The position numbers and the translations under genes are program-made. A stretch of 15,547 nucleotides of DNA, from IMG/VR virus record IMGVR_UViG_2648501392_000008. The stretch is one strand, 5' to 3'. Origin of the DNA: a virus. Its lineage: Duplodnaviria > Heunggongvirae > Uroviricota > Caudoviricetes. Positions 4,042 to 15,547 of this stretch are shown in pieces (position 1 is the stretch's first letter; every line of letters starts with the position of its first letter). The notes below the pieces were generated by a model that worked only from the letters and a program-made list of their open reading frames with translations, did not search any database and was not told the origin of the DNA.

Positions 4042-4626
4042 GTGGGTAAAGAACCTGAATGGAAAGTTGATAAACAACCAGCATGGCTGGTGGCAGCAAT
4101 ACGAAGAACGATTGCTGATTTACCTCATGGCTATGAGGAAGCAGCAGAAATTCTTGGTTTGTATAAATCTGATGATATCACCCCAGCAAAAGATCAATTG
4201 CATAACAGACTGCGTAGCGGTGGGGATCAAATTTTTCCACTTGAGTGGGCCATGGTTTTACAGGATGCCAGTGGTACCAGGCATGTAACAGATGCAATAG
4301 CCCGTCGTAGTAATGGGGTGTTTGTGCCGCTGGTGGTCATTGATGACATTGACAATGGTGACATTAATCAGCGGCTGATGGAGTCAATAGAATGGATTGG
4401 CAAGCATTCCCAGTACTTACGCAAGGCAACTGCTGATGGAGTTATTGACCAGGCTGAGCGTGAGCAAATCGAAGAGAACAGCTACCAAGTAATGGCGAAG
4501 TGGCAGGAGCATTTAACACTGTTATTTCGTGTTTTTTGTGCGCCGGAAAAGAGTAACGCCCGCGAGTGTGCAGCTCCGGGCGTCGTGGCGTCGATTGCTT
4601 CTGGTTGTGGAGAAACTAACGCATGA
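4042..4626 (+). CDS. CII-like / YdaT-like prophage regulatory protein
   Basis: GTG start with GAGGA SD 7 nt upstream; position immediately after the Cro/YdaS-like gene; product loosely resembles YdaT / phage-186-CII-type proteins (recalled, not searched). Confidence 0.5.
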   Translation: MGKEPEWKVDKQPAWLVAAIRRTIADLPHGYEEAAEILGLYKSDDITPAKDQLHNRLRSGGDQIFPLEWAMVLQDASGTRHVTDAIARRSNGVFVPLVVIDDIDNGDINQRLMESIEWIGKHSQYLRKATADGVIDQAEREQIEENSYQVMAKWQEHLTLLFRVFCAPEKSNARECAAPGVVASIASGCGETNA

Positions 4627-5783
4627 ATAGTTTAACGGCAAATAACCGTTTGTCGCAACAGCTGGTGGTCAGCGTCGCTGAACACCTGTTGTTACGGCAT
4701 GAATGCAGATTACCAAATCACCTGGCTGTAAGTAACCACAGAGAACTTTACCTGACTGTGGGGGGCGAGTTGTGCAGGAACTTAACCGCTGGTTTCGTGA
4801 CGGAAGAGGGCTTTATGTCCATGTTATTCGTTGGGAGCCAGAAACACAGCGCGTTATCTATCTTCGCAAAGACTACCCGCATGAGTGCTTTAGTCCTTTG
4901 TGGAAATTCAGGCGTGATTTTGTTGAGTGTGAAGGACCACCAGCATATTGATTCTGCAATTCCGGGACGTTACACTGCTCAGGCACCTTATAAAGCGGGT
5001 GCCGGGATTGGCGTCCTGAAATTGTCAACGGCGATGTATGACGCGCCAGCGTCTTTTTTATCGTCCGCATTTGCTCACATCCAGATTATGGTGGGCTGGG
5101 CGGGGGCACCGAAAGGTGCGCCGGTCTCCGTTGACGCCGGTTACGCCAACCCCGTCCAGTTCACCACCAGTGAAATTGGCGTTTCCGGTGGTGGAAGTTT
5201 TTCACTGTCAACGGAGGCTGCCATCATGGCTACGATCCCAGCCCTCACTCAACCTGAAATCACCATTGACAACGGCCAGGCCGTTACCACTTCTTTGGCT
5301 GTTGCCAACTTCTTCTCCAAGCGTCACGACGATGTGCTGAAAAAGATCCGCACTCTGGATTGTTCCCCAGAGTTTTGTGCCCGCAATTTTGCGGAGACAT
5401 CGATTTCGGTAAATCAACCGAACGGTGGTACACGCAAGCTCCCTTGCTATCAAATCACACGAGACGGTTTTGCGTTTCTTGCTATGGGTTTCACGGGTAA
5501 ACGTGCTGCCCGGTTCAAAGAGGCATACATAAATGCCTTTAACCAGATGGAGAAACAGCTTTCAAAGCCCGCTGTACCGAGCGACGTTGCACATAACGCC
5601 AGCGTTCTCTGTTCCTACATTTCATCAATTCATCAGGTCTGGCTGCAGCAGCTTTATCCTATGTTGGCAAAAGCCGAATCTCCGCTGGCTGTTAGCTTAT
5701 ATGACTATATTAATGATGCTTCGGCGCTGGCCAGTCTCATAAATTTGTCGCTGAACCCTTCAGAGGTAAGGGGGCGCAAATGA
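4623..5783 (+). CDS. Rha-domain phage regulatory protein with a roughly 200-aa N-terminal region of unknown function
   Basis: ATGA overlap with the upstream stop. Residues about 210-310 (QAVTTSLAVANFFSKRHDDVLKKIRTL...ITRDGFAFLAMGFTGKRAARFKEAYINAFNQME) match the Rha/pRha domain. An internal ATG at 5226 with GGAGG upstream could also initiate a standalone Rha protein. Confidence 0.55.
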   Translation: MNSLTANNRLSQQLVVSVAEHLLLRHECRLPNHLAVSNHRELYLTVGGELCRNLTAGFVTEEGFMSMLFVGSQKHSALSIFAKTTRMSALVLCGNSGVILLSVKDHQHIDSAIPGRYTAQAPYKAGAGIGVLKLSTAMYDAPASFLSSAFAHIQIMVGWAGAPKGAPVSVDAGYANPVQFTTSEIGVSGGGSFSLSTEAAIMATIPALTQPEITIDNGQAVTTSLAVANFFSKRHDDVLKKIRTLDCSPEFCARNFAETSISVNQPNGGTRKLPCYQITRDGFAFLAMGFTGKRAARFKEAYINAFNQMEKQLSKPAVPSDVAHNASVLCSYISSIHQVWLQQLYPMLAKAESPLAVSLYDYINDASALASLINLSLNPSEVRGRK

Positions 5784-6004
5784 TCCGGAATATTTTCAAA
5801 CGGTTTACCAATCATACTTTCCGTTGTCCTCGTCCGGGTCAGTGGTACACCACGCCTGCTGGGCATGTTCTACGTGTTAGCCTGGTTGACCGTGAATGTC
5901 AGAAGGTGGTTTGTGAACCGCTGGGCCGTAATTACCGCGTCAGTATGCCGCTTATAGCCTTTTGCTCCGGAAAAATGTTTAAGCGTCTGGGAGGTGTGGC
6001 GTGA
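5780..6004 (+). CDS. Hypothetical small protein (74 aa, several Cys)
   Basis: ATGA overlap with the Rha gene stop; AGGGGG SD 6 nt upstream. Confidence 0.4.
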   Translation: MIRNIFKRFTNHTFRCPRPGQWYTTPAGHVLRVSLVDRECQKVVCEPLGRNYRVSMPLIAFCSGKMFKRLGGVA

Positions 6005-6300
6005 ACTGTTTTCAGTTTGTGTGCGGATGTGCTTTCGATAACCCGATTCAGCGCCTAATTATGTTGCGTGTTTTGATGTCGGGTTCTTCAGACGGTGAAG
6101 GCGAGAGAGTTATTGATCATCAGGTGCTTGCTGATTTCTGCTGTTGTTCTAAGCAAGCGATATTCAGGGAAACCCTGGCACTGGAAAGAGCTGGTTATCT
6201 TCATATCCGAAAAATTGCAACGCTTACTATTGATGCAAAAGCCAGACTACAACCTGCGCGTGGCTACACAATTCTCATGCTGCGGAAGGAGGTTGTATGA
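6001..6300 (+). CDS. Hypothetical winged-helix-like DNA-binding protein (99 aa), possibly replication-associated
   Basis: GTG start overlapping the upstream stop (GTGA) with GGGAGGTG SD; LADFCCCSKQAIFRETLALERAGYLHIRK looks like a wHTH recognition region. Assignment is weak. Confidence 0.4.
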   Translation: MNCFQFVCGCAFDNPIQRLIMLRVLMSGSSDGEGERVIDHQVLADFCCCSKQAIFRETLALERAGYLHIRKIATLTIDAKARLQPARGYTILMLRKEVV

Positions 6301-7304
6301 GCCGTTACGCCCCCACACCGGAAGTTATGGCTATTGGTCAAATTAATATTTCCGGCAATGTTACACCTGCGACCTGGTGGAAATATATTCGACTACCCAG
6401 TGGGCGTCCGGATGCGACGGCTATCGCTCTGCTTTCAGAGATCGTTTACTGGTACCGCCCGACAGAGGTCAGGGATGAGCACACCGGAGCGTTGCTGGGA
6501 TATCGCAAGCGTTTTCAGGGCGACAAACTGCAAAGAAGCTACCAGGCGTTTGCTGAGCAGTTTGGTTTCGGGAAAAGGGAAACCGCAGATGCGCTGAAGC
6601 GTCTGCGCGATGCAGGGTTTATTACTCTGGATTTACGCACGGTGGAAATGCTCGATGGGGTGAAATGCAGCAATATTTTGTTTGTCGGGATCAACCCACA
6701 GGCAATTGCGGCCATCACCACACCTTCTTCTGTTTCGCCAGAAAGTAACAGCAATAATGCAATCAGCGATACAGCTATTACGTTAAAACGGAACACCCCC
6801 CGACGTCATAACGGAACAGGGGATACGCCGAATGTTGATACAAATACAGAGATTACTACAGAGATTACTACAGAGATTACTACAGAGATTACAACGGAGA
6901 CTAAAAACACTATTGGCGCATCCGCTGACGCGTCTGCACCAGCGCGTTCTGCCAGACAGGAATATTCACCGGAATTTGAACAGGCCTGGCAGGAATATCC
7001 CAAACGTGCTGGTGGTAATTCAAAATCCGCCGCTTTTAAAGCCTGGAAAGCCCGAATCAGGGAAGGTGTGACACCCGAAACCATGCTCGACGGTGTGAAA
7101 CGCTATGCCGCCTGGGTGCGTGTCTCTGGAAATACCGGTACCCAGTTCGTGAAGCAGGCGTCGACGTTCTTTGGTCCGGATCGTCATTTCGAAGAATCCT
7201 GGGAAGTTCCTGCGGTATCTGCAGCCAGACGCGAGGACCCGTACTTCAAAGCCAGTTACGACAACGTGGACTACAGCCAGATCCCGGAAGGATTCAGGGG
7301 GTGA
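6297..7304 (+). CDS. Phage replication initiation protein (lambda O-like / replisome organiser) with origin iterons inside the gene
   Basis: GGAAGGAGG SD before ATG 6297; N-terminal wHTH-like region; C-terminal EFEQAWQEYPKRAGGNSKSAAFKAWKARI motif typical of enterobacterial prophage replication proteins; 12-bp iterons within the coding sequence. Confidence 0.7.
   Translation: MSRYAPTPEVMAIGQINISGNVTPATWWKYIRLPSGRPDATAIALLSEIVYWYRPTEVRDEHTGALLGYRKRFQGDKLQRSYQAFAEQFGFGKRETADALKRLRDAGFITLDLRTVEMLDGVKCSNILFVGINPQAIAAITTPSSVSPESNSNNAISDTAITLKRNTPRRHNGTGDTPNVDTNTEITTEITTEITTEITTETKNTIGASADASAPARSARQEYSPEFEQAWQEYPKRAGGNSKSAAFKAWKARIREGVTPETMLDGVKRYAAWVRVSGNTGTQFVKQASTFFGPDRHFEESWEVPAVSAARREDPYFKASYDNVDYSQIPEGFRG
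6846..6893. repeat. Iteron array: 4 tandem copies of 12-bp acagagattact (candidate phage replication origin)
   Basis: Direct tandem repeats at 6846-6857, 6858-6869, 6870-6881 and 6882-6893 (last copy 1 mismatch), encoding TEIT repeats in the O-like protein. Confidence 0.7.
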
Positions 7305-7306
7305 TC

Positions 7307-7399
7307 ATGAGTCTTTTGAATGAAGTTCAGAAATTCATTGAAGCCCATCCGGGGTGTACTTCCGGAGACATTGCGGATGCTTTTTACGTGGGGGCTTAA
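7307..7399 (+). CDS. Possible small ORF (30 aa) translationally coupled between the replication gene and the Dam gene
   Basis: ATG at 7307 with GGGGG 6 nt upstream; stop TAA overlaps the Dam ATG (TAATG). Too short for the ORF track; no homology evidence. Confidence 0.3.
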   Translation: MSLLNEVQKFIEAHPGCTSGDIADAFYVGA

Positions 7400-8052
7400 T
7401 GAGTAATAAATATTGCCAGGCGCTGGTAGAACTGCGGAACAAACCAGCCCATGAACTGAAGGAAGTGGGCGATCAGTGGCGCACGCCGGACAACATTTTC
7501 TGGGGAATTAACACCTTGTTTGGTCCGTTTGTTCTGGATCTGTTCACTGACGGTGATAACGCCAAATGTGCCGCGTATTACACGGCGGAAGACAACGCGC
7601 TGGCGCATGACTGGTCAGAACGTCTTGCGGAGCTTAAAGGTGCTGCCTTTGGTAATCCCCCATACAGCCGCGCCAGTCAGCATGAGGGGCAATACATCAC
7701 CGGCATGCGTTACATCATGAAACATGCCAGTGCCATGCGTGATAAGGGCGGGCGCTATGTTTTCCTGATCAAAGCGGCCACCAGCGAAGTGTGGTGGCCG
7801 GAAGATGCAGATCATATTGCTTTTATTCGCGGGCGTATTGGTTTTGAACTGCCAGCCTGGTTTATCCCGAAAGACGAAAAGCAGGTGCCAACAGGTGCTT
7901 TCTTCGCTGGTGCTATTGCTGTTTTCGACAAGACCTGGAAGGGAGCGGCAATCAGCTACATCGGGCGCGATGAACTTGAGGCATGTGGTGAGGCGTTTCT
8001 GGCGCAGGTTCGCCAGCAGGCGGAAAAACTGGTCAGGGAGATGGCGGCATGA
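7399..8052 (+). CDS. Phage Dam-type N6-adenine DNA methyltransferase
   Basis: WRTPDNIF...LDLFTDGDNAKCAAYYTAEDNALAHDW...AFGNPPYS: the NPPY catalytic motif and flanking pattern are characteristic of the phage Dam family. ATG 7399 is preferred to the GTG at 7354 because of the SD. Confidence 0.85.
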   Translation: MSNKYCQALVELRNKPAHELKEVGDQWRTPDNIFWGINTLFGPFVLDLFTDGDNAKCAAYYTAEDNALAHDWSERLAELKGAAFGNPPYSRASQHEGQYITGMRYIMKHASAMRDKGGRYVFLIKAATSEVWWPEDADHIAFIRGRIGFELPAWFIPKDEKQVPTGAFFAGAIAVFDKTWKGAAISYIGRDELEACGEAFLAQVRQQAEKLVREMAA

Positions 8053-8375
8053 CGACATTAACTCAATGCCAGCAGCAGGTGCTGGATATGCTGATTTCTT
8101 ATCAGAAAGAACGTGGCTTCCCGCCAACCAATCAGGAGGTGGCAACCATGCTGGGATACCGTTCGGTGAATGCAGCGGTGGAGCATCTTCGCGCACTGGA
8201 GAAAAAAGGTGTCATCACGATAAAGCGTGGCGTGGCCCGGGGTATCACTCTTCATACCGCGGTGAAGGACGACGACAGCGAGGCGGTCGGGATTATCCGC
8301 GCCCTGCTTGCCGGTGAGGCAAACGCCAGGCTGCGTGCAGCCCACTGGTTACATGAGAGGGGCCTGAAAGTATGA
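8049..8375 (+). CDS. LexA N-terminal DNA-binding-domain protein lacking the S24 peptidase domain
   Basis: MTTLTQCQQQVLDMLISYQKERGFPPTNQEVATMLGYRSVNAAVEHLRALEKKGVITIKRGVARGI aligns by eye with the LexA N-terminus (LTARQQEVFDLI...[36 protein letters not shown], recalled); only 108 aa, with no Ser/Lys peptidase region. Confidence 0.7.
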   Translation: MTTLTQCQQQVLDMLISYQKERGFPPTNQEVATMLGYRSVNAAVEHLRALEKKGVITIKRGVARGITLHTAVKDDDSEAVGIIRALLAGEANARLRAAHWLHERGLKV

Positions 8376-8767
8376 AGCTAATACTGCCTTTTCCGCCCAG
8401 CGTGAACACGTACTGGCGACACCCCAACAAAGGGGCGTTTGCTGGTAAGAGCCTGATAAGCGCGGCGGGGCGAAAATTCCAGAGCGCGGCGTGTGCAGCA
8501 ATAGTTGAGCAGTTACGTCGTCTGCCGAAACCAACGTCGGCACCTGCTTCAGTGGAGATCGTGTTGTTTCCTCCGGATAACCGGATCCGCGATCTGGACA
8601 ACTATAACAAGGCGCTGTTTGACGCCCTGACCCACGCGGGTGTGTGGGAAGACGACAGACAGGTGAAAAGAATGCTGGTGGAGTGGGGACCGGTTATCCC
8701 GGAGGGGAAGGTCGAGATCACTATCAGTAAGTACGAAAAAGCGAGTTGCAAATTAGCAACTCGGTAA
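8372..8767 (+). CDS. rusA: RusA Holliday-junction resolvase
   Basis: LPFPPSVNTYWRH...RDLDNYNKALFDALTHAGVWEDDRQV matches RusA conserved blocks; ATGA coupling with the upstream gene. Confidence 0.85.
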   Translation: MKLILPFPPSVNTYWRHPNKGAFAGKSLISAAGRKFQSAACAAIVEQLRRLPKPTSAPASVEIVLFPPDNRIRDLDNYNKALFDALTHAGVWEDDRQVKRMLVEWGPVIPEGKVEITISKYEKASCKLATR

Positions 8768-8929
8768 CGGAATTGAGCAACACCCTAAATTTGGGTATTA
8801 CCTCGTTAAAGATACTGTATTTATGAACAGTGTATCCTTGATAACTATTAAAAATCGCAGTAAGTTCATCCTGCATCAACGAAAAGGGAGTGCAGTCCCG
8901 CTCGTGGATAAAAATTTGTGGAGAAACCA

Positions 8930-9745
8930 ATGAATCAGTTGCTTGTAATTGATGGCGTTTCTGTGCGCCAGTACTTCGAATCTAACTACTGTCTTAACGA
9001 CCTTCAGAAAGCTGCTCTTCTTGCCGCTGGTGAGAATCGCTCCTCCCGTTCGCTGGAAGTTCACGAGTTTATGCGTCGTCCTGAAACGAAGGCTCTTGTG
9101 GAATTATTGGAAGAAGAAACTACGGGAGATTCCCGTAGTATTCCTGTCATCACCATTCAGGGGCGCAATGGTGGGACGTATGTCTGTAAAGAGCTGGTCT
9201 ATGCATATGCAATGTGGATCAGCCCGGCATTCAGCTTAAAAGTGATACGTACTTTTGATGCGCTTCATAATTCATCACCAGAAGAAACCACATCCGACAA
9301 AATTAAATCCGGGGTCATTCTGCTTGAATCAGCAGCAAAGACTCTAAATCTGTCAAACTCCTCGAAACTTGGTGCATACCAGAAATTATCAAAGGTAGCT
9401 GGTCTTCCTGAACTTATGCCGATCTATGCCATTGATGCACCTGCTGATGCGCCAGATGGTTCAAGCCGCCCTACGCTGTCGCTGAGTGCACTGCTGAAGC
9501 AGTATGGTATCCGCCTGACGGCTAATCAGGCATATCACCAGATGGCGAAGCTGGGGATCGTTGAACAACGCGAACGATACAGCCGTACCGCGATTAACAA
9601 CATCAAAAAATTCTGGTCGCTGACAGCGAAAGGTTGCATGTTCGGCAAGAACATCACCAGTCCCGCAAATCCGCGCGAGACGCAGCCGCATTTCTTCGAA
9701 TCCCGATTCCCTGAGCTGTTAAAGCTGCTCGATACCGTTCATTGA
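8930..9745 (+). CDS. KilA-N domain protein (antirepressor-like)
   Basis: ATG 8930 with GGAG SD; the N-terminal region (IDGVSVRQYF...IQGRNGGTYVCKELVYAYAMWISPAFSLKVIRTF) is a KilA-N fold signature; the C-terminal half resembles antirepressor C-terminal regions. Confidence 0.7.
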   Translation: MNQLLVIDGVSVRQYFESNYCLNDLQKAALLAAGENRSSRSLEVHEFMRRPETKALVELLEEETTGDSRSIPVITIQGRNGGTYVCKELVYAYAMWISPAFSLKVIRTFDALHNSSPEETTSDKIKSGVILLESAAKTLNLSNSSKLGAYQKLSKVAGLPELMPIYAIDAPADAPDGSSRPTLSLSALLKQYGIRLTANQAYHQMAKLGIVEQRERYSRTAINNIKKFWSLTAKGCMFGKNITSPANPRETQPHFFESRFPELLKLLDTVH

Positions 9746-9746
9746 G

Positions 9747-10742
9747 GTGACCGTGAGAGCACTACTGACCCCTGAAATTGCCCCGCGTATGGGGATCGTA
9801 TTGTTCAGACCCGGTTCAGAGCTGATGCCCCTGTTTATGCAGGGGCGTGTCCTGCTGGAGCCTGAGCCGGAACGTTATTCATCTTTTGCCAGTGGTGCCG
9901 TTCCGGCAGCATCACAACCGCTGGCGGATGATCCTGCCGTTCGGGTCGTGTTCCGCAATGAGGCAGTGATCCGTCGTGCTGGTGGCGTGGAATGTCTTGA
10001 AAGCTGGTTACTTCGTGAAAAAGGTTGCCAGTGGCCTCATTCCGACTGGCACAGCGAGAACATGACCACAATGCGACACGCGCCGGGCGCAATCCGTCTG
10101 TGCTGGCACTGCGATAACCAGCTGCGCGATCAGTTCACGGAACGGCTGGAATCAATGGCAACGGATAACTGTGCCCGCTGGGTGTTGTCTGTTGTGCGTC
10201 GGGATCTCGGTTTTGATGACAGTCACGTTGTGACAATGCCGGAACTGTGCTGGTGGCTGGTTCGTAATGATCTGGCGGATGCCTTACCGGAAAGTGCAGC
10301 CCGTAAGGCACTGAGATTACCGAAGCCTGTTGTGCCGTCTGTCACCCGGGAGAGTGACCTTGTGCCTTCGGTTCCGGCCACCAGCATCATCCAGAATAAA
10401 GCGAAAAAGGTGCTGGCGCTGAAAGTGGATCCGGAGTCGCCGGAGTCTTTTATGTTACGCCCAAAACGTCGCCGCTGGGTTAACGAAAAGTACACGCGCT
10501 GGGTTAAGACGCAGCCGTGTGCATGTTGTGGAAAGCCTGCTGATGATCCCCACCACCTGATAGGCCACGGTCAGGGGGGAATGGGTACAAAAGCGCATGA
10601 CCTCTTCGTGCTGCCTTTGTGCAGAAAGCATCACGACGAGCTGCATGCGGATACCGTGGCATTTGAAGAGAAGTATGGCTCCCAGCTGGAGCTGATATTT
10701 CGTTTTATCGATCGTGCGCTGGCAATAGGCGTGCTGGCCTGA
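9747..10742 (+). CDS. DUF968-family prophage protein (YdfU-like) with a C-terminal Cys/His HNH-like motif
   Basis: C-terminal CACCGKPADDPHHLIGHGQGG...LCRKHHDELH; position between KilA-N/RusA and Q is typical. Start uncertain (GTG 9747 or GTG 9753 with a GAGGTG SD). Confidence 0.6.
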   Translation: MTVRALLTPEIAPRMGIVLFRPGSELMPLFMQGRVLLEPEPERYSSFASGAVPAASQPLADDPAVRVVFRNEAVIRRAGGVECLESWLLREKGCQWPHSDWHSENMTTMRHAPGAIRLCWHCDNQLRDQFTERLESMATDNCARWVLSVVRRDLGFDDSHVVTMPELCWWLVRNDLADALPESAARKALRLPKPVVPSVTRESDLVPSVPATSIIQNKAKKVLALKVDPESPESFMLRPKRRRWVNEKYTRWVKTQPCACCGKPADDPHHLIGHGQGGMGTKAHDLFVLPLCRKHHDELHADTVAFEEKYGSQLELIFRFIDRALAIGVLA

Positions 10743-10759
10743 TTTTGTGGAGAAAGTTG

Positions 10760-11131
10760 ATGCGTGATATTCAAATGGTTCTTGAACGTTGGGGGGCATG
10801 GGTGGCAAATAATCACGAGGATGTGGAATGGTCATCTGTTGCTGCAGGTTTTAAGGGATTAATTCCTTCGAAAGTAAAATCCCGCCCGCAATGTAGCGAT
10901 GACGATGGCCTGATCATTAGCTCTGCGATGACAGTTCTTAAGAAAAAGGAACCGTATCAATACGAATTACTGGAAATGTATTATGTGTATGGGGTTACAT
11001 TACGGGTGTTGGGGGTAAAACTGGGGATATCACTTAATCAGGTTGTTATCAGACTGCAGAAAGCTGAAGGGTTTATTGACGGTTGTCTGGCAATGTTGGG
11101 GGTATCTTTAGAAATTGATTGTTACATATAG
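10760..11131 (+). CDS. Late-gene antiterminator Q (QuuD/phage-21 type)
   Basis: ATG 10760 with GGAGAAAG SD; the N-terminus MRDIQMVLERWGAWVANNHEDVEWSS matches the recalled N-terminus of DLP12 QuuD. Confidence 0.8.
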   Translation: MRDIQMVLERWGAWVANNHEDVEWSSVAAGFKGLIPSKVKSRPQCSDDDGLIISSAMTVLKKKEPYQYELLEMYYVYGVTLRVLGVKLGISLNQVVIRLQKAEGFIDGCLAMLGVSLEIDCYI

Positions 11132-11168
11132 TAATAAATTCAATCAAAGTAAATAATCATATTTTATT

Positions 11169-11205
11169 ATAACCTCCTGATGATACCTGTTCATTGGGAG
11201 GTTAT
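11169..11205 (+). promoter_or_regulatory. 9-bp inverted repeat (ataacctcc ... ggaggttat) that would sequester the SD of the downstream 205-aa gene
   Basis: Perfect 9-bp arms at 11169-11177 and 11197-11205 with a 19-nt loop; the right arm contains GGAGG 5 nt before ATG 11207. Confidence 0.35.
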
Positions 11206-11206
11206 T

Positions 11207-11824
11207 ATGGATAAAAATGTAGAGCATGTATTAGTTGATGCAATTGAAAATAAGCAATCTTTAACAGTCGTTTACTTAGGAGGGAGCCAGCCCGGAACAT
11301 TAAGGAATATTTCTCCGATTAGTATAAATGGGGATAAATTGCGGGCAAGATGCCATAGTTCTGGAGCAGTAAAGGTTTTCAATCTTGGGAAAATACAGTT
11401 ACCCAGTGACTCCTGCGCGGTATCTATGCACTATGGAGATTTAGAAGTTAAAGCTTATGAGACGATGCAGAGCGTAAATGACAACTTTCATGCCCTTTAT
11501 CCTGAAGGACGATGGGGTGTTGATTTTAATGAGCATCGCTTTGCTTTATTTGATTTTTTTAAAAACGGGAAACGAAAAAAAACGGCATTTATGGCAATTG
11601 AGTTCAGGGAAAGAGATGAAGAGAAAATAATAACAGGTGTAACAATTGATATTGGTATATCTGGAACAGTGATTTCTGAGAAGTCCCGAATCCCAAAAAG
11701 ACGACCATGGGTAGTGGTTGGTCCCGAACACGGAGAATACAGTACTTATTCAACTTTGGACAAGGCTGCTACAGCGTTTTTTGAGAGGCTTTCGTTGATA
11801 GCATCCGGCCTGGAAGATAATTGA
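11207..11824 (+). CDS. Uncharacterised cargo (moron) protein, 205 aa, with a WYL-like N-terminal region
   Basis: Strong SD (GGGAGG) before ATG 11207; AT-rich codon usage unlike the flanking phage genes; followed by an intrinsic terminator. The N-terminal block SLTVVYLGGSQPGTLRNISPISINGDKLRARCHSSGAVKVFNLGKI fits the WYL-domain pattern by eye. No other domain recognised. Confidence 0.55.
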   Translation: MDKNVEHVLVDAIENKQSLTVVYLGGSQPGTLRNISPISINGDKLRARCHSSGAVKVFNLGKIQLPSDSCAVSMHYGDLEVKAYETMQSVNDNFHALYPEGRWGVDFNEHRFALFDFFKNGKRKKTAFMAIEFRERDEEKIITGVTIDIGISGTVISEKSRIPKRRPWVVVGPEHGEYSTYSTLDKAATAFFERLSLIASGLEDN

Positions 11825-11953
11825 TTTTATGTTTGGTATTCAGAGTTCGCCGTGCTTAAGAAAGTCAAGATTCTAAAAATACTGAATGAGCTACTTGTGT
11901 TATAACAAAAATGCTATTAGTGTGTTAAGAGTGGTTACTTCGCCACACAACTT

Positions 11954-11978
11954 AAACCCGCCACTGAGCGGGTTTTTT
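11954..11978 (+). terminator. Rho-independent terminator after the 205-aa gene
   Basis: aaacccgc-cactga-gcgggttttttg: 5-8 bp GC stem, 6-nt loop, 6-T run. Confidence 0.7.
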
Positions 11979-12076
11979 GTACCTGTAAACTTGGTGCAGT
12001 ACAGTAAACACGCTGGTGGTCGTGAATACTGACTTTTTATCTTGCTGGCTTTTTAGACAAGAGTTATTGGTATGTC

Positions 12077-12298
12077 ATGTTAACCAGAAGGGAAAAAGAC
12101 ATGCTAAAACAGCAAGATATGACCGAAACCGCCAGAGTGGTGTTTAATGAATTGAGCGTCACCGAACCGGCGACAGTCGGGGAGATTGCGCAGAATACTT
12201 ACCTTTCACGCGAACGCTGCCAGTTAATACTGACCCAGCTGGTTATGGCGGGTCTGGCAGACTATCAGTTCGGTTGTTACAGACGCCTTCCGCAGTGA
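12077..12298 (+). CDS. Small putative winged-helix/HTH DNA-binding protein (73 aa; alternative start at 12101)
   Basis: ORF ending inside an intrinsic terminator; ATVGEIAQNTYLSRERCQLILTQLVMAGLADY resembles a wHTH recognition region. Best SD (AGAAGGGA) precedes the ATG at 12101. Confidence 0.45.
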   Translation: MLTRREKDMLKQQDMTETARVVFNELSVTEPATVGEIAQNTYLSRERCQLILTQLVMAGLADYQFGCYRRLPQ

Positions 12299-12308
12299 AG
12301 GCTTTTTT
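12285..12308 (+). terminator. Rho-independent terminator overlapping the stop codon of the small HTH gene
   Basis: gccttc-cgcagt-gaaggc followed by tttttt; the TGA stop lies at the loop/stem junction. Confidence 0.65.
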
Positions 12309-12448
12309 ATTTGTGGTAAATGGGCGGTTGGTGGGTGTTAGGGGCACCCACCAGCCATCTGCTCATGCGTTGGGTTCACAAGCAAACCTCAGGCCCACTG
12401 CTTTGCGCAAAAGCAGAATGAGCCTATCAGAGACAGGCTTAATGATCC

Positions 12449-13525
12449 ATGCTTAATACTGTAAAAATATCCAGTTGTGAGTTAATCAACGCCGACTGCC
12501 TGGAATTTATCCGGTCGTTACCCGAAAATTCTGTTGACCTGATAGTCACGGACCCGCCGTACTTTAAAGTGAAGCCTGAGGGCTGGGATAACCAGTGGAA
12601 GGGCGACGATGATTACCTGAAGTGGCTGGACCAGTGTCTGGCGCAGTTCTGGCGGGTGCTGAAACCTGCCGGAAGTCTTTACCTGTTCTGTGGTCATCGC
12701 CTGGCATCTGATATCGAAATCATGATGCGTGAACGCTTCAGTGTGCTGAACCATATTATCTGGGCGAAGCCGTCCGGACGCTGGAACGGGTGCAACAAGG
12801 AAAGCCTGCGGGCGTATTTTCCGGCCACAGAACGCATTCTGTTCGCGGAACATTATCAGGGGCCGTATCGTCCGAAAGATGATGGCGATGAGGCGAAGGG
12901 CAGGGCACTGAAACAGCATGTGATGGCCCCGCTGATTTCTTACTTTCGTGATGCGCGTGCTGCTCTTGGGATAACGGCAAAACAGATTGCAGATGCCACA
13001 GGAAAGAAAAACATGGTGTCGCACTGGTTCAGTGCCAGTCAGTGGCAGCTACCGAACGAAAGCGATTATCTGAAATTACAGTCGCTGTTTGCCCGGGTGG
13101 CAGAAGAGAAACATCAGCGGGGAGAACTGGAAAAGTCCCATTACCAACTGGTCAGCACATACAGTGAGCTGAACCGGCAGTATATGGAACTGCTGAGTGA
13201 ATATAAAAATTTGCGGCGGTATTTCGGTGTGACGGTGCAGGTGCCGTACACCGATGTGTGGACGCATAAACCGGTGCAGTACTATCCAGGGAAACATCCG
13301 TGCGAAAAACCGGCAGAAATGCTGCGGCAGATAATCTGCGCGAGCAGTCGTCCGGGTGACCTGGTGGCGGATTTTTTCATGGGTTCTGGCTCAACCATAA
13401 AAGCAGCTATGGCGCTCGGGCGTCGTGCAACTGGTGTTGAACTGGAGGCAGAACGTTTTGCGCAGACCGTTAAGGAGATTAGTCACATCCTTACATGCTC
13501 AATTGATGACGGGAAGGATGGATAA
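12449..13525 (+). CDS. Beta-class N6-adenine/N4-cytosine DNA methyltransferase (YhdJ-like), apparently an orphan
   Basis: SVDLIVTDPPYF (motif IV) at the N-terminus and DLVADFFMGSGSTIKAAMALGRRATGVE (motif I, FxGxG) near the C-terminus, i.e. the beta-class permuted order as in E. coli YhdJ. No restriction endonuclease gene is adjacent. Confidence 0.85.
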   Translation: MLNTVKISSCELINADCLEFIRSLPENSVDLIVTDPPYFKVKPEGWDNQWKGDDDYLKWLDQCLAQFWRVLKPAGSLYLFCGHRLASDIEIMMRERFSVLNHIIWAKPSGRWNGCNKESLRAYFPATERILFAEHYQGPYRPKDDGDEAKGRALKQHVMAPLISYFRDARAALGITAKQIADATGKKNMVSHWFSASQWQLPNESDYLKLQSLFARVAEEKHQRGELEKSHYQLVSTYSELNRQYMELLSEYKNLRRYFGVTVQVPYTDVWTHKPVQYYPGKHPCEKPAEMLRQIICASSRPGDLVADFFMGSGSTIKAAMALGRRATGVELEAERFAQTVKEISHILTCSIDDGKDG

Positions 13526-14744
13526 AGATATGGTCAGTTCAGGCTGTGAAGCAAGTAGACAGATAAGGCTGCAATAAAAACTGACAATAGTAAAATAGCT
13601 TTTTCCCAGGTAGTCATGAATACGATCTCTTAAAGCGCCCGCTGATACCAGCGGGCAATACATACTGGCATTAATGTTAAGTTCAGGGATAATTCATCGT
13701 ATTTTGTGGTACGACGCTATCAATATTAATAAACAGTATTTTTCATGTAAAATTTCTGTTTTTTTGATCTGATTCTCGTTTCCTGGGTTATGATGTTGTT
13801 GTGAACCATGCTGTTGAATGATAATGTTCGGGTATAAAATTGTTGCTGATATGTAGCGCAGTGAGCGGGTGGTATTTCTGTTGCTGAGTGTACGGATACA
13901 GTGCTTCCCTCCCTCAGCGGGGGGCAGGTGTGCTGTGGTTTTAGAGACACCGGAAACGAGAATGATGCGGGTTTGCTGGTGCCGGGATAGAGTCGCCGGA
14001 GGTCATGACATAGAGCAAAAAAGGAATGTGCATGCAAATACACACCTCTTCGGAGAGCTCTTCTTTATATGGATGAGCCTCAAGGTCAATAGTTTATCTG
14101 TTATGTATTCATATGTTGTTACTTATATAATCCATACGGGCATATCATCAGTACACACATACTATTATGGCATTTTATTTTTGTTTTAACTGAATTCCCG
14201 GGGCACTCTTTTTGATTTCTGATAAGGAACCAGAATTTTCTGTTAAATGGTGTCACGTTGTAAATGGTTAATGGAAGCAGCTTATTATCCATAATCACAC
14301 CTGAGTTAACAGGTGTGAGAATACTTCCGGGTGGCAGGAACACATCTGACTGATACCAGATTATCAACTTTATTTTACACCATACAGTTGAAAACGTTAT
14401 TCCGCTTGATGGGCATATCACTGTGTCAATAACTATCCATTCCATCTTTTAACCTTCTCGGTACACATTGCTTTCGATTGTTTTGCTAAAAATCATAGTC
14501 AATAAATCAGTGTAACTCATTGATAAAGATCGTTTTCTTTGTCTTCCTGGGGTTTTCTTTTCTAATTTTGTATCACTTTGGTTCAAGTTGTTTCATTTTT
14601 TGTAATACAAATTAGCAGGATGAGCGGGAATATAAAAAAATCGGATGTTTTTGTAATGGATATTATTTTTTGTAAAATAATGTATTTTTATTTAAATCTC
14701 TATCAGAAAAGAATTTATTGTTCCTTTATATGGTGGAAAAGGTC

Positions 14745-15547
14745 ATGGTATTTAAACACTACGATGTGGTCAGGGCGGCGTCGCCGTCAGACCTTGCGGA
14801 AAAGCTGACACACAAACTGAAAGAGGGCTGGCAGCCATATGGCGGACCGGTTGCCATTACGCCGTACACACTGATGCAGGCGGTGGCTATTGAAGGAGAG
14901 CCACAGGTCGGCCCTTCATCTGAGCCGGACTGGTTCTACGTGGTTGTGCTTGCCGGACAGTCCAACGGCATGGCCTACGGTGAAGGGCTTCCGTTACCGG
15001 ATTCTTACGATGCTCCGGATCCGCGCATTAAACAGCTGGCGCGCCGCAGCACGGTAACTCCGGGTGGAGAGAGTTGTACGTATAACGACATCATCCCGGC
15101 TGACCACTGCCTGCATGATGTGCAGGATATGAGTACGCTGAATCATCCGAAGGCAGACCTGAGCAAAGGGCAGTACGGCTGTGTCGGCCAGGGCTTACAT
15201 ATTGCCAAAAAACTGCTTCCGTATATCCCGAATAACGCGGGGATCCTGCTGGTACCATGCTGTCGTGGTGGTTCGGCATTCACCCAGGGCGCGGAGGGGA
15301 CATTCAGTGCGGACACGGGGGCCAGCCAGGATTCGGCACGCTGGGGTGTGGGTAAACCGTTATATCAGGACCTGATTGCGCGCACTAAAGCTGCATTACA
15401 GAAGAACCCGAAAAATGTGTTGCTGGCGGTGTGCTGGATGCAGGGAGAGTTTGACATGAGCGCCGCCACCCACGCACAGCAACCTGCGCTGTTTACAGCC
15501 ATGCTGACACAGTTTCGTGCTGACCTCTCCGTGTTTAACGCGCAGTG
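14745..15547 (+). CDS. nanS: Prophage sialate O-acetylesterase NanS-p-like protein (DUF1737 N-terminus plus SASA/SGNH esterase), 5' part only; continues beyond the window end
   Basis: Translated by hand from ATG 14745: MVFKHYDVVRAASPSDLAEKLTHKLKEGWQPYGGPVAIT...WFYVVVLAGQSNGMAYGEGLPLPDSYD... contains the GQSN esterase motif and the NanS/YjhS-like context seen downstream of stx in Stx phages. Not in the ORF track because there is no stop inside the window. Confidence 0.75.
   Translation, partial: MVFKHYDVVRAASPSDLAEKLTHKLKEGWQPYGGPVAITPYTLMQAVAIEGEPQVGPSSEPDWFYVVVLAGQSNGMAYGEGLPLPDSYDAPDPRIKQLARRSTVTPGGESCTYNDIIPADHCLHDVQDMSTLNHPKADLSKGQYGCVGQGLHIAKKLLPYIPNNAGILLVPCCRGGSAFTQGAEGTFSADTGASQDSARWGVGKPLYQDLIARTKAALQKNPKNVLLAVCWMQGEFDMSAATHAQQPALFTAMLTQFRADLSVFNAQ

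Follow-up and report, generated by a model that had tools for sequence, protein, structure and literature searches.

A probable stx-less counterpart of the Stx2-phage accessory array between Q and nanS-p of a lambdoid prophage

In Shiga toxin (Stx) phages, stx lies in the interval between the antiterminator gene Q and nanS-p. What does a lambdoid prophage carry there when it has no stx? We addressed this question with a 15,547-nucleotide (nt) stretch of Caudoviricetes DNA (IMG/VR record IMGVR_UViG_2648501392_000008), hereafter called the window, which corresponds to the early-to-late junction of a lambdoid Escherichia coli prophage. An initial annotation had described three genes in its Q-to-nanS-p interval (positions 11132-14744). 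These three plus-strand genes are indeed found: an AT-rich open reading frame (ORF) of 205 amino acids (aa), a small winged helix-turn-helix (wHTH) gene and a 358-aa DNA methyltransferase gene. A fourth one, encoding an IraM-family protein, is located on the minus strand. The interval is probably the accessory array of the Q-to-nanS-p region of Stx2 phages in a form without stx, composed of at least four independently exchanged blocks that differ in their jobs and in their expression logic. Most of the array consists of known parts. What is new is a third lineage of IraM, together with the 205-aa product, an uncharacterised protein with a WYL domain.

A close parallel is given by the Stx2a phage Stx2_EH2201, in which the gene order is ydfU (DUF968), Q, wHTH, methyltransferase, tRNA Met/Arg/Arg, stx2AB, iraM on the minus strand and yjhS/nanS-p. 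This order supports the earlier proposal that the interval is the slot carrying stx in Stx phages. In phage 1720a-02, the order is Q, wHTH, methyltransferase and stx2A. Overall, the window shares with Stx2 phages (Stx2_EH2201, 1720a-02, phiP27 and phage 2851) the succession DUF968-Q-wHTH-methyltransferase, followed further on by iraM on the minus strand and nanS-p, as well as the late promoter PR' and a leader hairpin. The interval also has the location of the Stx-phage moron slot, from Q/PR' to nanS-p and upstream of the lysis genes. Its cargo is different. No stx homology was detected in the interval, ARAGORN found no tRNA in it, and neither stx nor tRNAs of the ileZ-argN-argO type are therefore part of it. 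At the place of the tRNAs and stx, the window has an unrelated 590-bp spacer. Two other features distinguish the window from the Stx2 phages: an extra gene, that of the WYL protein, is inserted between Q and PR', and the IraM protein belongs to a different lineage (63% identity).

Breakpoints of homology with other prophages were located near 11906, 12002, 12372 and 13476. The S88 prophage matches the window from 10700 to 12372, then carries an AraC-like gene and three tRNAs. The O39:NM prophage matches positions 12002-15547, located behind a different (DUF1133) antiterminator, and 1720a-02 matches positions 11906-13476. No complete E. coli genome contains at least 80% of the interval in one place. 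These breakpoints point to blocks that were exchanged independently rather than to one operon. Synonymous divergence (dS) leads to a similar picture. A diverged lineage (locus L060; L numbers designate the loci used for comparison) retains Q, the WYL gene, the wHTH gene and the methyltransferase gene. Compared with it, dS is 0.80 for Q and 0.82 for the WYL gene, versus 0.26 for DUF968, 0.10 for the wHTH gene and 0.17 for the methyltransferase gene. Thus, Q and the WYL gene form one old unit and the remainder was exchanged more recently.

The block structure already largely refutes the view that the 205-aa protein, the small HTH protein and the methyltransferase make up one undescribed accessory or anti-phage module under Q-dependent late transcription. 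The three genes are adjacent and co-oriented, the diverged lineage (L060, L063 and L067) has kept Q-WYL-wHTH-methyltransferase together, and the slot of another prophage (L077) holds defence-type cargo, namely an NsnA/PD-T4-2_A-like GmrSD_N protein with a HEPN protein. Against this, most phages have the wHTH-methyltransferase pair without the WYL gene, the WYL-wHTH pair also occurs with an AraC-like gene replacing the methyltransferase gene, and divergence depths differ four- to eight-fold. Moreover, the methyltransferase is a known stand-alone enzyme, the WYL gene lies upstream of PR', and a search of the interval proteins with PADLOC gave no system-level match. We consider this view very improbable. 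The proposal of a single uncharacterised module was set aside, since the methylase is a close relative of M.EcoGII, the fourth gene belongs to the IraM/IraL family, the wHTH gene is ubiquitous and the blocks have separate histories. That of a new anti-phage cassette did not survive either: PADLOC recognised the methylase with generic MTase_II and orphan methyltransferase models only, matched the WYL protein below threshold (E values 0.0014-0.0066) and the wHTH protein weakly (E value 0.003), and returned nothing for the IraM-family protein. None of the interval proteins thus belongs to a defence-system model of PADLOC.

The methylase gene (12449-13525, plus strand) encodes a 358-aa N6-adenine DNA methyltransferase (N6/N4 methyltransferase family PF01555, E value 1.1e-42, residues 29-340) of the M.EcoGII type. 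In an alignment with the M.EcoGII sequence of the SUPREM paper (PMC11551740, Table S1; read by machine from a PDF, so that a few errors are possible), 324 of 350 residues are identical (93%), over the catalytic and target recognition domain (TRD) region. Identity with the enzyme of phage 1720a-02 is 91%. The translation displays the motif order of the beta class, with TDPPYF at residues 34-39 (DPPY, 35-38) and FMGSGS at about 310-315. The initial annotation had called this protein a YhdJ-like orphan methyltransferase. A methyltransferase it is, and the ORF list, Pfam and PADLOC reveal no nuclease gene in the interval. The label itself is too generic for an M.EcoGII orthologue: the protein scores 112 bits with the "YhdJ-like" model NF008572, for a cut-off of 292, indicating only generic beta-class similarity, and matches PADLOC MTase_II with an E value of 9e-161. 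M.EcoGII is a prophage-encoded enzyme that methylates adenine in any sequence context and is silent in the lysogen (Murray et al. 2018, PMC5778455). The enzyme is part of a large family in E. coli prophages, with that of 1720a-02 named as a close relative; M.EcoGI, likewise a non-specific adenine methyltransferase, and M.EcoGII come from prophages of E. coli O104:H4 C227-11 (PMC5778455). The window enzyme resembles both in being prophage-borne, in its DPPY-TRD-FxGxG order and in its position downstream of Q and of a small wHTH gene. From the high identity with M.EcoGII, the window methylase may well be non-specific too. The tails of the two proteins diverge from about residue 340, and nucleotide homology with other phages stops at 13476; the window enzyme differs in its last 10-20 residues.

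The 1.2 kb that follow the methylase gene had been described as lacking a convincing ORF. This was incorrect: on the minus strand, positions 14119-14445 encode a 108-aa protein of the IraM/IraL family of RssB anti-adaptors, and only 13526-14118 is gene-less. The protein matches NCBIfam NF007393 over residues 1-107 with 144.2 bits (cut-off 121), a PF11183 match is on record, and RefSeq annotates the gene as iraM in loci that are 99% identical. It shows 55% identity with K-12 IraM and 61% with an IraL-type protein found in the same slot of another prophage (L013). A total of 46 phage records, mostly from Stx2c and Stx2a phages, contain homologues with 63% identity, on the strand opposite to the late genes. 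Of 5426 complete E. coli genomes, only 28 contain the window allele together with its flanks. The exact protein, however, is indexed in 4116 blocks of an assembly collection, where the prophages carry Q genes of three different families. By its sequence, the protein is a third lineage of a known anti-adaptor family. With K-12 IraM, CFT073 IraL and Salmonella RssC it shares family, length, location on a mobile element and the organisation as a small AT-rich gene with its own upstream region; its identity with IraM (55%) and IraL (61%) sets it in a separate lineage. IraM and IraL have been demonstrated to be RssB anti-adaptors that stabilise RpoS, and were placed on prophage e14 and on the potB island of CFT073, respectively (PMC4045071). 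In the RefSeq K-12 record, the e14 feature stops about 270 bp before iraM. Binding of RssB by the window protein is suggested by this family relationship.

The region upstream of the IraM-family gene, which separates it from the divergent nanS-p gene (14446-14744), is AT-rich, with a guanine-plus-cytosine (GC) content of 0.335-0.36, and contains three direct repeats of the TTTTTGTAA type. These repeats (family D1, 14597-14684) are 18-mers resembling TTTTTGTAAT. They could be the site of a regulator or of H-NS.

Which of these genes depend on Q is governed by the position of the late promoter. In both Stx phages of the Sakai strain, the PR' start was mapped 258 nt upstream of the tR' 3' end by differential RNA sequencing (dRNA-seq) and Term-seq (Sy et al. 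2020, PMC7547250). The same distance of 258 nt, measured back from the U-run of tR' in the 933W-like phage Stx2 II, leads to the A of TAAG/AGTGGTTAC, seven bases past a TATCAT -10 hexamer and about 20 nt past the Q stop codon. The window matches this element column for column, with the -10 TAGTGT, then GTTAAGAGTGGTTAC, then the same hairpin and U-run. PR' would therefore be located at 11895-11930 (plus strand), with the -35 TTGTGT at 11895-11900, the -10 TAGTGT at 11918-11923 and a start near A11930. A 17-nt block, TTGTGTTATAACAAAAA, which comprises the -35 and the upstream spacer, is invariant in L060 and L063, where identity of the surroundings is about 80%. Phages with other Q alleles have a different sequence at this place, which is what a Q-specific site would predict.

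Another position for PR' was considered, directly downstream of Q (about 11132-11180), which would place the WYL gene in the leader between PR' and the terminator, constitutively transcribed in the lysogen as StxS is. A -10-like TATTAT (five of six consensus positions, 11165-11170) aligns with TACAGT in L060, where a TGAACA -35 is found at 16 nt, and the tight linkage of Q and the WYL gene would suit a Q/qut/cargo unit. By eye, no acceptable -35 exists in the window between 11132 and 11206, and in L060 an indel of 11 nt lies between the candidate elements. The homologue of the -10, start and initial transcribed sequence of the mapped PR' is found at 11918-11945, downstream of the WYL gene, and the same element directly follows Q in 1720a-02 and Stx2 II. 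An alternative PR' next to Q is thus improbable, and we retain the location at 11895-11930. The proposal of a Q-dependent late expression of the interval has to be divided accordingly. The 205-aa gene, located between Q and PR', would be on the Q transcript or have a promoter to itself, and would thus fall outside the late cargo that depends on Q. For the methylase gene, downstream of PR' and of terminators, Q-dependence remains the likely mode.

Downstream of the proposed start, a hairpin followed by a U-run (11954-11978, plus strand) occupies +25 to +49 and represents the first terminator-like site of the leader. Region 11925-11985 folds with -20.1 kcal/mol (z score -3.35) and the hairpin is conserved among four types of Q. 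Read-through of its homologue in Sakai-type phages gives the 258-nt StxS precursor (PMC7547250). The two loci are homologous in the -10, the start, the initial transcribed sequence and this first hairpin. They then differ: the Sakai leader runs into the StxS 3' region whereas that of the window runs into the wHTH gene, and no StxS-like sequence or Rfam match was found in the window leader. Between PR' and the next terminator (12285-12311), the wHTH gene takes the position of the StxS precursor of Sakai-type phages. In phage Stx2 II (L085, about 850-958), the last 30 or so methylase codons (KAAMALGRRAIGVELESGRFEQTVREVQNVVSQNG and the stop) are kept directly after tR'. In 933W-like phages, the wHTH gene and the greater part of the methyltransferase gene have therefore apparently given way to a StxS-type leader. 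The conserved leader also contains a Chi site (GCTGGTGG, 12012-12019, plus strand), invariant in all four aligned prophage types.

The wHTH gene (12101-12298, plus strand) encodes a 65-aa protein annotated as TrmB family or as a DprA-like winged helix (phrog_331, E value 1.2e-37; weak match with Pfam TrmB, E value 0.0034). Its conserved start is ATG 12101, since the upstream ATG 12077 reads ACG in relatives. With 334 relatives in prophages of E. coli, Shigella, Salmonella, Klebsiella and Citrobacter, it is a ubiquitous enterobacterial prophage gene. An intrinsic terminator overlaps its stop codon (12285-12311, plus strand) and is a candidate equivalent of tR'; the hairpin is modest (-9.5 kcal/mol, z score -1.25). 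The three independently terminated units proposed initially are only partly recovered. The terminator after the wHTH gene stands. The 11954-11978 hairpin is found after PR' rather than where the 205-aa gene ends, and the hairpin that follows the methylase gene (13637-13656) has no U-run.

Could the 65-aa protein control the timing of methylase expression, in the manner of a C protein? The wHTH gene is directly upstream of the methyltransferase gene in many phages with or without stx, phiP27 and SfV among them. Nevertheless, an AraC-like gene follows the same wHTH gene in S88-type prophages, in the window the two genes have a terminator and a recombination junction (about 12372) between them, and a repeat search found no operator-like repeat upstream of the methyltransferase gene. 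The 933W-like phages, which lost the wHTH gene and most of the methyltransferase gene together, are uninformative here. We regard such a controller role as unlikely. The gating of the methylase by Q, through the terminators that precede it, is the preferred explanation.

The 205-aa protein (11207-11824, plus strand) is encoded by AT-rich DNA (GC content 0.36-0.40) and assigned to phrog_8498, of unknown function. Sequence models hint at its family by sub-threshold scores only, including that of Pfam WYL. A model calculated with AlphaFold2 from an 80-sequence alignment (mean predicted local distance difference test score 85.8) contains the beta-barrel of a WYL domain. In this model, one helix precedes the barrel and residues 1-65 are the WYL barrel itself. 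No HTH family of Pfam, NCBIfam, PADLOC or PHROGs matched the protein. Fold searches revealed a resemblance of the WYL domain to DriD, CapW and BrxR, the solved structures of which bind single-stranded DNA (ssDNA) according to the entry titles. The predicted architecture is therefore that of a WYL (Sm/SH3-like) ligand-binding domain followed by a C-terminal alpha/beta domain, without a DNA-binding HTH. This differs from DriD, CapW, BrxR and PafBC, which have an N-terminal wHTH DNA-binding domain and about 290-330 aa, versus about 200 for the phage-borne, stand-alone protein of the window. Its C-terminal domain cannot be recognised as the WCX domain through which WYL regulators dimerise. For this domain, three fold searches with two AlphaFold2 models gave weak matches only (frataxin/CyaY, PsiB and AcrIIA11), and fused relatives in the family provided a single domain clue, a zinc ribbon, in one case.

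An exhaustive profile search with this protein retrieved 954 representative clusters, 191 of them with E values below 1e-30. Nearly all members are stand-alone proteins of 190-205 aa. Tyr23, Gly26, Arg33 and Lys56 are invariant and Lys62 is nearly so (at least 90%); Tyr23, Arg33, Lys56 and Lys62 are basic or aromatic positions located in the barrel. With a ratio of non-synonymous to synonymous divergence (dN/dS) of 0.20 relative to L060, the protein is under purifying selection. In all ten distinct contexts of the exact Q allele, the WYL gene comes next. Distant members of the family are also phage-borne and adjoin regulators: an XRE/CI-like gene is directly upstream in L068, L069, L074 and L075, and Rha directly downstream in L015, L016, L070 and L072. 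In L068 and L069 (3529-5094), the CI/XRE-like HTH gene upstream is accompanied by a small sigma/LuxR-like gene downstream. The regulator neighbours in L068, L069, L074 and L075 echo the position of the WYL gene next to Q in the window. A full-text literature search found no description of a phage-encoded WYL protein of this stand-alone type.

Folding also revealed an RNA hairpin (11163-11211, plus strand; inverted repeat I3) that hides the Shine-Dalgarno sequence GGGAGG (11196-11201) and the AUG of the WYL gene. Its minimum free energy is -23 kcal/mol (z score -5.25) and none of 200 shuffled sequences folds as well. The arms are retained, through a G-U change, in L060 and L063, where the WYL protein is about 72% identical.

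What could such a protein do? Its likeliest role would be that of a sensor of nucleic acid (ssDNA or RNA) or of nucleotides, acting in phage developmental regulation or in host-defence signalling. A specific version supposes an HTH-less sensor or decoy that binds ssDNA or another nucleic-acid signal, and either modulates a phage switch (Q, Rha, CI-like) or blunts CapW (CBASS) or BrxR (BREX) operons by titrating the signal or poisoning dimers. The predicted DriD/CapW/BrxR-like fold, the lack of an HTH with conserved basic and aromatic residues in the barrel, the recurrence of family members beside phage regulators and the co-divergence with Q are in line with it. So is the tight translational masking, expected for a dosage-sensitive regulator. 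Even so, we give this version only a small chance, and an equally small one to our best guess, a stand-alone sensor of nucleic acid or nucleotides that would act in trans on regulators of the phage or on host defence under WYL control. Slightly more doubtful still is the broader idea that the Q-linked, HTH-less protein is the prototype of an uncharacterised phage family (about 950 representative clusters) of trans-acting nucleic-acid sensors on Q/Rha/CI-like circuits, or of decoys against CapW-CBASS/BrxR-BREX, silenced by the Shine-Dalgarno-sequestering hairpin until a specific cue. If true, it would define a new class of phage regulator or counter-defence protein. Widespread, under purifying selection, co-inherited with a Q allele and translationally masked, the WYL gene between Q and PR' is the one most deserving of experiment.

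Taken as an array of separate blocks, the interval may work as follows. The first block (10760-11905) comprises Q and the WYL gene. Since the latter lies between Q and the late promoter, it would share the delayed-early transcript of Q or be expressed from its own weak promoter, and its translation would be held down by the hairpin over the ribosome-binding site. The second block (11895-12311) contains PR', the leader hairpin, Chi, the wHTH gene and its terminator. PR' is constitutive in Sakai-type Stx lysogens; if the same is true of the window, this block would be what the lysogen transcribes, subject to read-through of the first hairpin. The third block would yield the methylase only upon antitermination by Q, because the gene is downstream of the terminators. 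A position behind PR' and two terminators would fit the reported silence of M.EcoGII in lysogens. The enzyme could then methylate adenines in any context on replicating phage DNA, so that the progeny would be broadly protected from host restriction. In the fourth block, the IraM/IraL-family gene, on the opposite strand, would use its own promoter in AT-rich DNA, and its product would bind RssB and stabilise RpoS in the lysogen.

Several observations weigh against parts of this scheme. Both PR' hexamers are weak (three of six consensus positions each), and a consensus promoter scan did not list the site at 11895-11930; the position was settled by alignment with the mapped Sakai-type PR' instead. 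Expression of the wHTH gene in the lysogen would depend on how efficiently the first hairpin terminates transcription. The methylase differs from M.EcoGII by about 26 substitutions and by a longer, different C-terminal tail (358 versus 349 aa). The IraM-family protein has only 55-61% identity with characterised members, and IraL and IraM themselves differ in their RssB binding mode (PMC4045071). In addition, a search upstream of the IraM-family gene for a PhoP box gave a best site at 14513-14529 with three mismatches, which is not convincing; sites of this quality are in modest excess (62 observed versus 41 in shuffled sequences). In K-12, induction of iraM is PhoP-dependent. Finally, the WYL gene is truncated or split in three of the ten contexts of the identical Q allele (L008, L010 and L011, 4448-5067), and is therefore dispensable for prophage carriage.

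Within these bounds, the "empty" stx slot of stx-negative lambdoid prophages corresponds to the array that flanks stx2 in Stx2 phages. The stx-less array would combine a constitutive PR' leader, a Q-gated hyper-methylase with an anti-restriction role and a RpoS stabiliser in antisense orientation. This clarifies what accompanies stx and what a lysogen gains without it. Two routes would then lead from this phage region to RpoS, one through StxS in Sakai-type phages and the other through IraM-family proteins in the window and in Stx2 phages.

Two genes border the interval. Q (10760-11131, plus strand, 123 aa; PF06530, E value 1.5e-47) has its mechanically called ORF beginning at TTG 10745. Its S88 counterpart is RefSeq WP_001204814.1 and it shows 56-58% aa identity with Q of 933W-like Stx2 phages. 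A weak match resembling sigma-70 region 4 was also observed in Q. On the right, the 5' part of nanS-p (14745-15547, plus strand) encodes a 9-O-acetyl sialate esterase (DUF1737, E value 4.2e-16; SASA, E value 1.4e-13), annotated in RefSeq as a SASA-family esterase in L001.

The gene-less spacer of about 590 bp (13526-14118), at the tRNA/stx2AB position of Stx2 phages, was defined by null searches. Its two ORFs of about 105 aa have no Pfam match. It has no Rfam match, no phage match and no remnants of stx or tRNAs, and its RNA folds no better than shuffled sequences on either strand. Like the IraM-family allele, it is present in only 28 of the 5426 complete genomes. A 17-nt inverted repeat was noted in it (13772-13788 and 13947-13963).

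Comparison of the interval across related prophages, as proposed initially, does show variable cargo, and the Q-to-nanS-p slot is a hot spot for it. Two prophages with the same iraM allele provide examples. The L077 slot (5810-9508) carries a C5 DNA methylase together with the GmrSD_N and HEPN proteins mentioned above. In L079 (7618-9079), the space between Q and the wHTH gene is occupied by two opposite-strand genes of 308 and 182 aa, without Pfam or PADLOC match.

Non-coding elements were also searched. No Rfam family reached its gathering threshold in the interval. When E values up to 1 were accepted, a weak full-length match to STnc130 appeared at 11946-12082 on the minus strand (30 bits for a gathering score of 55). 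It overlaps the leader hairpin and Chi, which are on the other strand, probably rests mainly on the bidirectional terminator, and was not counted as a gene. Chi sites (GCTGGTGG) are abundant in the 15.5-kb window, with 12 occurrences versus 0.52 expected from shuffled sequences, nine of them counted on the plus strand; they are found at 4086, 4329, 4661, 4937 (minus), 7008, 7778 (minus), 8674, 9978, 10249, 10378 (minus), 12012 and 12348 (minus). In the early region near Rha-family genes, positions 4983-5171 (plus strand) contain isrK (62 bits) and, next to it, a C4 antisense RNA (81 bits), both above Rfam gathering scores, which constitute a P1/P7-type immunity RNA pair within a lambdoid prophage.

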